NCBI GenBank assembly: GCA_964567575.1
Contig: CAZMMZ010000005.1
Location: 28,715-67,177, forward strand
Direction: 5' to 3'
Length of the DNA: 38,463 bases
Origin: Candidatus Undinarchaeota archaeon
GTDB taxonomy: Archaea > Undinarchaeota > Undinarchaeia > Undinarchaeales > UBA543
This document shows positions 26,004 through 28,540 of this stretch, one piece after another. Position 1 is the first letter of the stretch. The number at the start of each line of letters is the position of its first letter. The notes under the pieces were generated by a model. It was not told where the DNA came from, ran no database searches, and saw nothing but the letters and a program-made list of their open reading frames with translations. The position numbers were made by a program, and so were the translations under genes.

Positions 26004-26284
26004 AACTCTTTTATTTTACCCATCAACTTTTCTTTTCCATCTCTTCTTTCCATTTTTCAAAGTCTTTCATAAAGTTTTTTCTTTTTTTTAGTTCTTTTTT
26101 TGTTTCTTTTTCAACAATCATAGTATCAACAAAATTCTGTAAAAATTTCTTCCCACTCGCATTTATTTTTTTCCCTAAATATTTTAAATAAATTTAAAAT
26201 ATTTTTTAAATTTATTTTTATTTTATTTACAATGCTTTTGCACGTGCGTAGGAATGTGTCGCGGCTTATTGGTTTTGGTTGATA

Positions 26285-26356
26285 GGGGCGCTGGGGCGCG
26301 GCTGGGCCGGGGCGCAGACAATTTTATTTTTCTGCGCACCTGCTCCACTGCGCTCC
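26285..26356 (+). other. GC-rich stem-loop / G-quadruplex-compatible island in AT-rich intergenic DNA
   Basis: 26293-26318 pairs with 26331-26356 at 22/26 positions (3 G-U); G4-N4-G4-N7-G3-N2-G4 at 26285-26312. Confidence 0.6.
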
Positions 26357-26528
26357 TGAATTTCTTCTAAAATATTATTTTTTTATAATTATTTGCAAAT
26401 AAATTAAATATTTTCAAATTATTTTGAATCTTTTCACAAATTTGTGCAAGAAAAGTGCTAGTTTATGTGTAAAAGTGGGGTGTAAATCTATTCTATACAG
26501 TATTCTTCCTTTAATTCTCTAAAAACAA

Positions 26529-26575
26529 CCCTCAAATGTGAGGTTAACCTCACATTTTGTAACTTTAACCTCACA
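26529..26575. repeat. 47-bp element, copy 2 (identical to 12635-12681)
   Basis: Exact match, same orientation. Confidence 0.95.
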
Positions 26576-26577
26576 CG

Positions 26578-26599
26578 CCGCCTGGCCGCGGCGGATGGC
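26578..26599. repeat. GC-rich REP-like 22-mer, inverted copy of 28418-28439
   Basis: CCGCCTGGCCGCGGCGGATGGC vs reverse complement CCGCCTTGCCGCGGAGGATGGC, 20/22 identical. Confidence 0.85.
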
Positions 26600-26643
26600 C
26601 GTGGGCATTCGCTTCGCGAAGCCCAGATTTGAAATTGGTTAAT

Positions 26644-28380
26644 TTATTTAACGTAATAATATTCACCTTTCTTTTTCTGCTCACGATCCTTAACACTGTC
26701 TTGTTTATTAGCTCGCGGCCTTCCGGTTTTCTCCTCACGGCGGAATGTGATGTCCAAATCCTTCAAAAATAAGTTCATTCCTTCTTTCATTGTGTATGGT
26801 CCTTTACCTTCCCCAGTTTTTCCAGACTCTCCACTGAAAACCATTAGTCTGTCTGATAAATAATCTAGTAACATTATGTCGTGATCAATTATAATCGCGC
26901 TTTTCTCACGGTCCTCTATGCTGTGTCGTATAACATTTGCAACATTCACTCGCTGTTCAACATCTAAATGCGCTGAAGGTTCATCAAGAAGATACAAGTC
27001 TGCATCTGCAGAAAGACATTTTGCAATTGAAACTTTTTGAAGTTCCCCCCCAGATAATTCACCAAGAGTTCTGTCAAGTAATTTCTCTAAACCAAGATCA
27101 AGCAACACTTTTTGAGCAACTCCTTTCAAAGCAATTCGAACTAAAATATCTTCATCTGGTTTAATGTATTGAGGCTTGTAAGAAATTTTTATTTTTTTAC
27201 TAAGAGATCCAGTGTCTGATTTTAATTCTCCAGCTAATATTTTCATGAAAGTTGTTTTTCCTGTTGCATTTGGACCAACAACTCCAATTAATTCCTTTTC
27301 ATGAATTGCTCCTTTTTCAACTTTCAAAGCAAAATTCTTGAATTTTTTTGTAAGATCTTTGAATTCTACAATTGTGTGAAGTTTTTTTGAATCACTTGCT
27401 GCTTTTACAATAAATTTCAAAGGAGTTTCGCGGAATTGCACATTTTCTTCTTGCAAAAATCCTTCAAGATAAGAATTGATTCCTTCCTTAATTGATTTAG
27501 GATGACTGACTATGCCGTATGCTCCTGGTTTTCCATAAAAGATATGTGCAAGGTCTGCAAGGTAATCTAAAATAATTAAATCGTGTTCAATTATCAAAAC
27601 TAATTTTTTCTCAGCAAGTTTGCGAATTATTTTTGCGATTTTTAATCTTTCTTTAATATCAAGATAAGATGAAGGTTCATCAAAGAAATAAATGTCAGCG
27701 TCTTTCAAGAGGCATGCAGCAATTGCAACTTTTTGCAATTCTCCGCCAGAGATTTTTGAAACTTCACTGTCTAAAATATTTTCAATTCCAATTTCTTTTG
27801 CAATATTATCCAAATTTTTTGTTTCATCAACTTTTTTCAAAAGTTCTTTTACTTTTCCTTTGAACATCTTTGGAATCTTGTCAACGTATTGCGGTTTGTA
27901 AGCCATTTTCTTCTTATTAATATTTGCAAAATATCCTTGCAATTCTGAGCCAGCAAAGAATTTTGATAATTCTTCTTTCGTTGCTTCATGATCTGTTCCG
28001 AGATTTGCTTTTAATCCACCTTCAATAATTTGCAAAGCAGTTGTTTTACCAGTTCCGTTTTGTCCAAGCAAACCAACAACTTGTTTTGGAATAGGAATCG
28101 GAGATCTGAAAAGTGTGAAACCGTTCTTGTCACCGAATTGGTGAACGCATTGTTCCTTCAAAGACTCTGGGAGATTGACAATTGTGATAGCATCGAATGG
28201 ACATTTCTTTGGGCAAATACCGCAACCAGTGCATAGTTCCGTGTTTATGAAGGCCTTTCTGTCTTCGCCTTGTACTATACATTCCTTACCAGTTCGGTTA
28301 ACAGGACAGATACGCTCGCATAGGTAATTACCACATTTCTCTGGGTGGCAGTCCTCTTTTTTCAGTATTGCTATTCTCAT
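26644..28380 (-). CDS. rli: Ribosome recycling ATPase ABCE1/RLI
   Basis: N-terminal CHPEKC..YLC..ICP / CTGCGICPKKCP Fe-S domain, two Walker A (GQNGTGKT, GPNATGKT), ISGGELQ/LSGGELQ, DEPS. Confidence 0.98.
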   Translation of the reverse strand: MRIAILKKEDCHPEKCGNYLCERICPVNRTGKECIVQGEDRKAFINTELCTGCGICPKKCPFDAITIVNLPESLKEQCVHQFGDKNGFTLFRSPIPIPKQVVGLLGQNGTGKTTALQIIEGGLKANLGTDHEATKEELSKFFAGSELQGYFANINKKKMAYKPQYVDKIPKMFKGKVKELLKKVDETKNLDNIAKEIGIENILDSEVSKISGGELQKVAIAACLLKDADIYFFDEPSSYLDIKERLKIAKIIRKLAEKKLVLIIEHDLIILDYLADLAHIFYGKPGAYGIVSHPKSIKEGINSYLEGFLQEENVQFRETPLKFIVKAASDSKKLHTIVEFKDLTKKFKNFALKVEKGAIHEKELIGVVGPNATGKTTFMKILAGELKSDTGSLSKKIKISYKPQYIKPDEDILVRIALKGVAQKVLLDLGLEKLLDRTLGELSGGELQKVSIAKCLSADADLYLLDEPSAHLDVEQRVNVANVIRHSIEDREKSAIIIDHDIMLLDYLSDRLMVFSGESGKTGEGKGPYTMKEGMNLFLKDLDITFRREEKTGRPRANKQDSVKDREQKKKGEYYYVK

Positions 28381-28389
28381 TTTATTTTT

Positions 28390-28455
28390 TTATTGCAGTA
28401 TAGCGGCGTAGCCGCCTGCCATCCTCCGCGGCAAGGCGGAGATTGCAATTCTCAT
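28390..28455 (-). CDS. Putative upstream ORF of ABCE1 (MRIAISALPRRMAGGYAAILQ*)
   Basis: ATG 21-24 nt downstream of a TATA-like GAAAGTTATTTTATAC; in frame with ABCE1; stop 9 nt before ABCE1 ATG. Confidence 0.5.
   Translation of the reverse strand: MRIAISALPRRMAGGYAAILQ
28418..28439. repeat. GC-rich REP-like 22-mer, inverted partner of 26578-26599
   Basis: See partner; flanked by GCGGC-GTA-GCCGC hairpin at 28403-28415. Confidence 0.85.
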
Positions 28456-28540
28456 TGCTAAAACCTAGGATTGTGGGTATAAAATAACTTTCGCTCTCTA
28501 GTCGCAGTCTTTATATCTGACTAAATCTATTGTTTTTCTA

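Follow-up and report, generated by a model that had tools for sequence, protein, structure and literature searches.

An upstream reading frame at an Undinarchaeota ABCE1 gene, probably the footprint of a structured mobile element

The upstream open reading frame (uORF) that precedes the ABCE1 gene in a marine Undinarchaeota archaeon is very probably the footprint of a mobile-element insertion that duplicated the leaderless ABCE1 start, and not an evolved sensor. ABCE1 is the factor that splits post-termination ribosomes, and the first-pass annotation of the locus had read the uORF as a possible device by which poor ribosome recycling raises ABCE1 output, naming a start duplication created by a repeat-element insertion as the simpler alternative. 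The observation holds up, and of the two explanations the ordinary one is right while the bold one lacks support. The uORF is polymorphic in the population and absent from relatives, which argues for an insertion accident rather than an evolved sensor. Judged by the assembled sequences, the insert is present in only some strains of the organism.

In the reading favoured here, an element copy of 61 nt sits 14 nt inside the leaderless ABCE1 gene, and the target end (14 nt, ATGAGAAT[T/A]GCAAT) is duplicated, as at many other copies of the family, so that an intact ABCE1 start was rebuilt 75 nt downstream. The old promoter-proximal ATG now opens a frame of 21 codons, which crosses the element and terminates within its A/T-rich tail.

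A duplicated start between promoter and gene

The window, i.e. the whole stretch of DNA analysed, comprises 38,463 nt of a 745-kb assembly in 18 contigs (G000). The features of the locus are listed below in the order of the ABCE1 sense strand; G001 and G002 are two congeners, G004 belongs to another genus, and L061 is a metagenome contig with an empty site.

28475–28492, minus strand: BRE/TATA promoter GAAAGTTATTTTATACCC, the ancestral ABCE1 promoter; identical 18-mer in G001, G002 and L061
28456–28474, minus strand: 19-nt spacer from TATA to leaderless start, strongly diverged between filled and empty allele (allele alignment)
28442–28455, minus strand: first repeat copy (DR1), the ancestral ABCE1 start ATGAGAATTGCAAT, which now opens the uORF; 13/14 identity to DR2, promoter distance as in relatives
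28390–28455, minus strand: 21-codon uORF (MRIAISALPRRMAGGYAAILQ*), ATG at 28455, TAA at 28392–28390; probable insertion product
28415–28441, minus strand: element core, an H-type pseudoknot (nhmmer E 4e-5; covariance model R1 47.5 bits, E 1.6e-7)
28441–28436 with 28429–28424, minus strand: core helix S1, CTCCGC/GCGGAG, 6/6 pairs
28435–28430 with 28420–28415, minus strand: core helix S2, CTTGCC/GGCAGG, 6/6 pairs
28403–28415, minus strand: second hairpin GCGGC-TAC-GCCGC of the short-hairpin subfamily (shared architecture, local fold)
28381–28402, minus strand: element tail TATACTGCAATAAAAAAATAAA, which holds the uORF stop and the 9-nt gap; GCTATA.TGC is common to subfamily copies
28367–28380, minus strand: second repeat copy (DR2), the functional ABCE1 start ATGAGAATAGCAAT (sequence, Pfam, relatives' starts)
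26644–28380, minus strand: the sole ABCE1/Rli1 gene, coding for 578 aa (Pfam domains Fer4_RLI and Fer4, plus two of ABC_tran)
26570–26651, plus strand: full-length family copy that adjoins the ABCE1 stop codon in the orientation opposite to the 5′ copy (nhmmer E 2e-23); present in both alleles, including L061

Read along the minus strand, the order is promoter, 19-nt spacer, ATGAGAATTGCAAT, a GC-rich block of 39 nt that stands out in a genome of about 35% GC, TATACTGCAATAAAAAAATAAA and then ATGAGAATAGCAAT. The first 14 nt of the gene are repeated at 13 of 14 positions (ATGAGAATTGCAAT versus ATGAGAATAGCAAT), the uORF ATG lies 75 nt 5′ of the ABCE1 ATG in the same frame, and 9 nt (AAAAATAAA) separate the uORF stop from the ABCE1 ATG at 28380. 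The minus-strand sequence, the coordinates, the 21-codon uORF and the in-frame offset of 75 nt are all as the first-pass annotation described them, and its count of 21 out of 24 positions shared with the ABCE1 start once the middle of the uORF is taken out is correct. The apparent start duplication derived from that count holds for its 14-nt part; the last part (ATACTGCAA) is at least partly element sequence. Where the ABCE1 copy has ATACTGCAA after the second hairpin, its subfamily relatives have GCTATAATGC or GCTATAACGC, so most of the 'ATACTGC' that closes the uORF comes from the element and not from a second duplicated piece of the target.

Chance similarity between the two starts was rejected, since ABCE1 is the only one of 664 long ORFs whose first 14 nt recur, with at most one mismatch, within 200 nt upstream. 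Matches of 15 and 13 nt to the uORF start at G000:C12:9055 and C4:59909 are unrelated coding sequence. An initial impression that stop codons occupy all three frames just 5′ of the ABCE1 ATG was false; a hand check found them in two frames only.

ABCE1 is full-length when read from the second repeat copy, and positions 1–35 of the Pfam profile Fer4_RLI align to its residues 1–33; as the domain begins at residue 1, position 28380 is the true start of the gene. The protein is the sole strong match in the whole assembly, and the closest ABCE1 genes (84% identity) come from MAGs labelled Candidatus Undinarchaeota and UBA543.

By its spacing, the promoter fits the upstream ATG. TATA-like hexamers peak at −32 to −28 from the ATG across the genome (159 of 669 ORFs, against 38 in a control window), and SD-like motifs are enriched at −17 to −8 (164 of 669 against 45), so the genome mixes leaderless and SD-led genes. 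GAAAGTTATTTTATACCC places TATA-like hexamers at −29/−28 of the uORF ATG, inside the genome-wide peak, which bears out the earlier remark that this ATG stands at leaderless distance from a BRE/TATA element. The ABCE1 ATG, compared with the same genome-wide motif window, has no TATA-like hexamer at −33 to −27; as had also been noted, it has no SD-like motif at −17 to −8, and the motif windows found none anywhere in the element tail (28381–28402). An internal promoter, by which the element itself would drive a leaderless ABCE1 mRNA, was considered and judged unlikely: the element offers just one TATA-like string, CTATAC at −23, which misses the −32 to −28 peak and is not accompanied by BRE-like purines.

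Filled and empty alleles

In both congeners, whose ABCE1 is 84% identical to the one described here, GAAAGTTATTTTATACCC is followed by 19 nt and then by ATGAGAATAGCAAT, and the insert is absent. A Tara Oceans contig likewise has promoter, 19-nt spacer and ABCE1 start in one contiguous run, i.e. an empty site, and four further, more distant relatives in the order show no start duplication, their ATG following directly on the promoter or on the upstream gene. G001, G002, L151 and L061 are all without the insert. Since the ABCE1 ATG of the relatives comes directly after the same promoter and spacer, the uORF ATG is the ancestral ABCE1 start.

A comparison within the same population was obtained by looking up contigs that code for an identical ABCE1 protein. 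Contig L061 is such a case; its match to the window is 100% over about 3.7 kb, apart from a 110-nt patch in which the 75 nt are missing. Two other contigs (L062 and L063) are 100% identical to the window over 3.3–3.4 kb, insert included. The identical filled allele occurs in three independent assemblies (JGI 3300005508, JGI 3300036767 and ENA ERZ27245245), and an NCBI assembly has the same 160-nt intergenic gap. Identical filled alleles in independent assemblies, taken together with the empty L061, mean that the insert is real, recent and polymorphic; of the assemblies found, four have the filled allele and one has the empty allele.

These data bear on several readings of the locus. Three further explanations, namely an assembly artefact, an intron removed by the splicing endonuclease, and readthrough of the uORF stop to give a 25-aa N-terminal extension, share a practically negligible probability. 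The last of them draws on the fact that the uORF is in frame with ABCE1, such that readthrough of the TAA would extend the protein; against it stands the Fer4_RLI domain, which starts at residue 1 of the downstream ATG. The three independent assemblies, identical across the junctions, speak against an artefact, and a scripted scan found no bulge-helix-bulge motif able to remove the 75 nt or the stop.

Evolved recycling-sensing autoregulation, in which the uORF is kept because poor ribosome splitting raises reinitiation at ABCE1, is highly improbable. The geometry fits, with a leaderless uORF whose stop lies 9 nt before an SD-less ABCE1 AUG; archaeal reinitiation is known at such distances (PMC6728339, PMC10666635), and human ABCE1 is itself regulated by uORFs (PMC8389594). 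The uORF and the start duplication are absent, however, from the two congeners, from the four other relatives in the order and from one allele of the same population, and the pattern across these six relatives and the empty allele is not that of a conserved regulatory uORF or leader peptide. The claim made by the first-pass annotation falls with this distribution.

The two alleles differ by more than the insert. Ten further substitutions separate them, all within the 110-nt patch (28474–28365) and clustered in the spacer and at 28365–28366, while the rest of the 3.7 kb or so is identical. At the variable sites of the spacer the filled allele agrees with the congeners at seven positions and the empty allele at three. 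At ABCE1 codons 5–6 the empty allele, like G001, has ATTTTG, whereas the filled allele has ATACTG, which matches the element tail; this sharing of ATACTG between tail and codons is beyond what a 14-nt duplication accounts for. As aligned, no simple insertion or excision turns one allele into the other. Possible origins of the patch are short-patch recombination from a diverged, insert-bearing lineage, local gene conversion, or repeated insertion and excision; a metagenome scan with promoter plus start returned only a congener's empty site and no donor lineage for the diverged patch.

It is at this point that a history of two events has to be weighed, in which a tandem duplication of about 33 nt copied the ABCE1 start and a GC-rich core of 43 nt later entered the upstream copy. 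Such a history would account for the match of 21/24 on both sides of the core, and also for the ATACTG that follows the core and recurs in codons 5–6 of the filled allele and is seen neither in the empty allele nor in the congeners. It is nevertheless quite improbable: copies of the same subfamily at tRNA genes have GCTATAATGC or GCTATAACGC after the core, which makes 'TATA.TGC' part of the element; the succession of duplication, core, tail and duplication is the regular layout of the family; and the two start copies are unrelated beyond the 24 nt. The preferred reading remains a single element insertion with duplication of its target.

A family of structured elements at gene ends

The 75-nt insert is composed of the 14-nt start copy (13/14) and a 61-nt copy from a family of 70–95-nt repeats, of which nhmmer finds about 10 full and 3 partial copies in the 745-kb genome. 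The middle of the uORF is thus a copy of a dispersed repeat, which also counts against evolved autoregulation. In an alignment of 25 cores from four genomes, helix S1 is paired in 100% of copies with four covarying pairs, and the inner four pairs of S2 covary as well (at one position, for example, as U-A, G-C and C-G). The helices, of the types CTCCGC/GCGGAG (S1) and CTNNNC/GNNNAG (S2), stand in pseudoknot order. The observed pseudoknot score was reached by none of 500 shuffles and by no slid register. T·G wobbles indicate that the structure forms on the given strand, which for the copy upstream of ABCE1 is the ABCE1 sense strand. The covariance model detects 11 cores in G000, 12 in G002, 4 in G001 and 20 in G004, and none in 13 other genomes of the phylum (present in 4 of 17). 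The family is a lineage-restricted, gene-less structured mobile element made up of pseudoknot, hairpin and A/T-rich tail. Empty sites, family copies and covariance model together lend strong support to what had been offered as the simpler alternative, namely that a repeat element duplicated the start when it inserted.

The ABCE1 copy belongs to a short-hairpin subfamily; its second-hairpin architecture is also found at L032 in G001 and at L034, L169, L170 and L002 in G002, and the distal part of its tail is missing or replaced. In Rfam only tRNAs were matched: no family reached the gathering threshold in the window, and none appeared at E ≤1 for five copies of the element. Nothing relevant on an element of this kind in Undinarchaeota turned up in the literature. 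Searches of the four element-bearing MAGs gave no hit to DDE_Tnp_1, RVT_1, Phage_integrase or Cas1, i.e. no DDE transposase, reverse transcriptase, tyrosine integrase or Cas1; this is weak evidence because these MAGs are only 78–82% complete.

About 25 of 45 distinct copies are flanked by exact direct repeats of at least 11 nt, with repeat cores of 11 to 30 or more nt; the longest flanking repeat measures about 57 nt with one mismatch, and the first repeat copy ends just 5′ of the element core. The duplication sites are tRNA 3′ ends, tRNA 5′ ends and gene starts. Copies of a long-hairpin subfamily are found mostly at tRNA 3′ ends, where they run antisense to the tRNA; those of the short-hairpin subfamily, which includes the ABCE1 copy, occupy tRNA 5′ ends in G001, G002 and G004. 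The complete gene is always on the tail side, with a mere stub on the core side. The ABCE1 copy has this layout, with a flanking target repeat of 14 nt (13/14) and an intact end of the gene that was hit.

Two unrelated protein-coding genes of G004 carry the same footprint. At GAPDH the start is duplicated including its SD and 30 nt of coding sequence, leaving a uORF of 43 codons with a TGA that overlaps the true ATG. Nre has two duplications, one nested in the other, and its proximal uORF terminates 8 nt ahead of the ATG. The frame in which the core is read differs between ABCE1, GAPDH and Nre, which implies that the peptide is not what is conserved; that the same family leaves comparable uORFs at genes such as these, with its core in other frames, is a further argument against an evolved ABCE1 sensor. 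The Nre locus (L050:1340-1590, G004:C4) contains two nested element insertions at one leaderless start, and the start ATGAAAG... is present there three times.

At L155 (G004:C4:112414-113261) three copies stand in tandem with nested duplications of GATTGCTCAGAAGCT plus a 30-nt repeat, an array that looks like repeated insertion at one site. In G000, a copy at L067 (C5:23881-24030) has a flanking repeat of 22 nt exact (about 40 nt imperfect) with the end of another copy just upstream, a layout that resembles a small tandem array in a non-coding island. Two composite copies in G001 (L055:1498-1640 and L059:1396-1536) have a hairpin-bearing segment inserted in the core after S1, following which the second half resumes; they are possibly one element inserted into another. 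In five G000 copies (C4:56351, C4:1625, C5:5696, C7:13466 and window position 26651) the tail (…GAAATTGGTTAA) ends exactly at the stop codon of a convergent gene. As most G000 copies away from tRNA genes end at such convergent stop codons, gene 3′ ends are preferred sites too.

The copy at window position 26651 is the one that abuts the ABCE1 stop codon. It lies at the edge of 640 nt of non-coding sequence between an HD-domain gene and ABCE1 (26004–26643), unusually long for a compact genome and containing several repeats and hairpins. If the ABCE1 3′ UTR runs through this copy (26570–26651), the two ends of the mRNA would share about 20 nt of complementarity. Immediately 5′ of the same copy is a palindromic motif of the TTAACCTCACA type (26529–26575, plus strand), which also adjoins a partial element copy at G000:C7:13350-13420; the recurrence suggests an association of the two repeats.

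Small, structured, multi-copy, non-coding repeats of the MITE/REP type are well known, among them Correia/NEMIS and the Rickettsia palindromic elements, which are co-transcribed with their neighbours and occasionally lie in frame within genes. The Undinarchaeota element shares their small size, structure, copy number and lack of coding capacity, but it targets gene ends and rebuilds the end that it hits. In the aligned full copies its 5′ end (GTCCGCCTGGCC...) and 3′ end (...GATTTGAAATTGGTT) are not reverse complements, i.e. terminal inverted repeats are not seen, and the two further hallmarks of a MITE, a target duplication of fixed length and a cognate transposase, were not found in the four MAGs (78–82% complete). 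The closest parallel in duplication behaviour is provided by IS1549/IS1634 with their very variable direct repeats (8–514 bp); these are, however, autonomous elements of 1.5–2 kb with a DDE transposase, while the Undinarchaeota element measures 60–100 nt and has no ORF (PMC2266710).

Expression of ABCE1 from the filled allele

Given that the old promoter is retained, transcription would still begin at the old leaderless site (~28455), and ribosomes would consequently load on the 5′-terminal AUG of the uORF. The essential, single-copy ABCE1 would then be translated from an internal AUG 9 nt past the uORF stop, without a TATA or SD of its own. This AUG lies 75 nt into the predicted transcript, in a stretch that is A-rich and unstructured in the local fold. 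A GC-rich pseudoknot from +15 onwards could hinder loading on the 5′-terminal AUG.

The uORF and ABCE1 are on the same strand with a stop-to-start gap of 9 nt, within the coupling distance of about −8 to +10 nt (PMC10666635). Reinitiation in Haloferax volcanii tolerates gaps of about 10 nt, drops by 40–60% at 13–14 nt and is abolished at 22–23 nt (PMC10666635); in an extract of Saccharolobus solfataricus, leadered mRNAs that lack an SD were not translated (PMC7531240). In the present genome 110 of 185 closely spaced gene pairs have no SD-like motif. On these three grounds termination-reinitiation is the leading candidate, and ABCE1 is most likely made by reinitiation after the uORF, as far as the arrangement of the locus allows this to be predicted. 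The alternative route is direct, SD-independent initiation in the unstructured A-rich stretch.

Natural coupled pairs in archaea are mostly −4/−1 overlaps between real genes (PMC6728339, PMC10666635). The ABCE1 locus resembles them in that no more than 10 nt lie between the uORF stop and a downstream start that lacks an SD, on what is predicted to be the same transcript; it differs in that the upstream ORF is a 21-codon by-product of an insertion, and the coupling is putative. Human ABCE1 is repressed in a scanning-dependent manner by five conserved uORFs (PMC8389594). Upstream ORFs precede ABCE1 in both cases, but there is no homology or shared origin with the Undinarchaeota insertion.

If reinitiation depends on ABCE1 activity, this dependence would be an accidental side effect and not a selected sensor. 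An accidental feedback of this kind, in which a selfish insertion made ABCE1 synthesis depend on reinitiation by unsplit ribosomes and output became self-limiting in the filled strains, is unlikely, although it has the same geometry in its favour as the evolved version, including an ABCE1 AUG with neither TATA nor SD, and the greater frequency of the filled allele (4 versus 1 assemblies) indicates that the arrangement is at least tolerated. Ribosomes that initiate directly, independently of an SD, in the A-rich unstructured stretch would account for ABCE1 synthesis just as simply, and archaeal reinitiation need not involve unsplit 70S ribosomes (PMC10666635, PMC7531240). A still bolder form is rather doubtful: the selfish insertion would have put ABCE1 under a leaderless relay uORF, filled strains would make ABCE1 mainly through ribosomes that stay unsplit after terminating 9 nt upstream, creating negative feedback, and the family might rebuild gene ends by duplicating inward from the transcript end. 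An insertion footprint, with whatever translational consequences follow from it, thus remains the preferred description of the locus.

With regard to outcome, the closest published parallel is provided by the MIRUs (mycobacterial interspersed repetitive units). According to the summary in PMC12548453, these are short, gene-less repeats that insert at gene starts, where a small ORF crosses the repeat and ends beside the host start, probably handing ribosomes on and making the insertion tolerable. The Undinarchaeota element is likewise a short gene-less repeat that occurs at gene starts, with a small ORF that traverses it and finishes beside the host start. The ORFs of MIRUs are coupled at −4 nt and are part of the element, whereas the ABCE1 uORF stops 9 nt before the ATG and opens with a copy of the host gene's own start, the core frame varying from locus to locus. 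The Undinarchaeota case is further set apart by an archaeal host with leaderless mRNAs, a covarying pseudoknot core and tRNA ends as the commonest targets. The outcome resembles that of the mycobacterial elements; the structure does not.

Overall, a regulatory story gives way to documented evolution: both alleles occur in one population, sister species have the empty site, and the footprint recurs at other genes. The locus shows how an archaeal gene that is both essential and leaderless can withstand an insertion 14 nt into its coding sequence, the route of survival being an element that duplicates the gene start and leaves a short frame ending beside the rebuilt one. Filled and empty alleles coexist on otherwise identical DNA, and a natural control therefore exists; with a downstream gene whose product splits post-termination ribosomes, the ABCE1 case is a convenient test bed for reinitiation in archaea.
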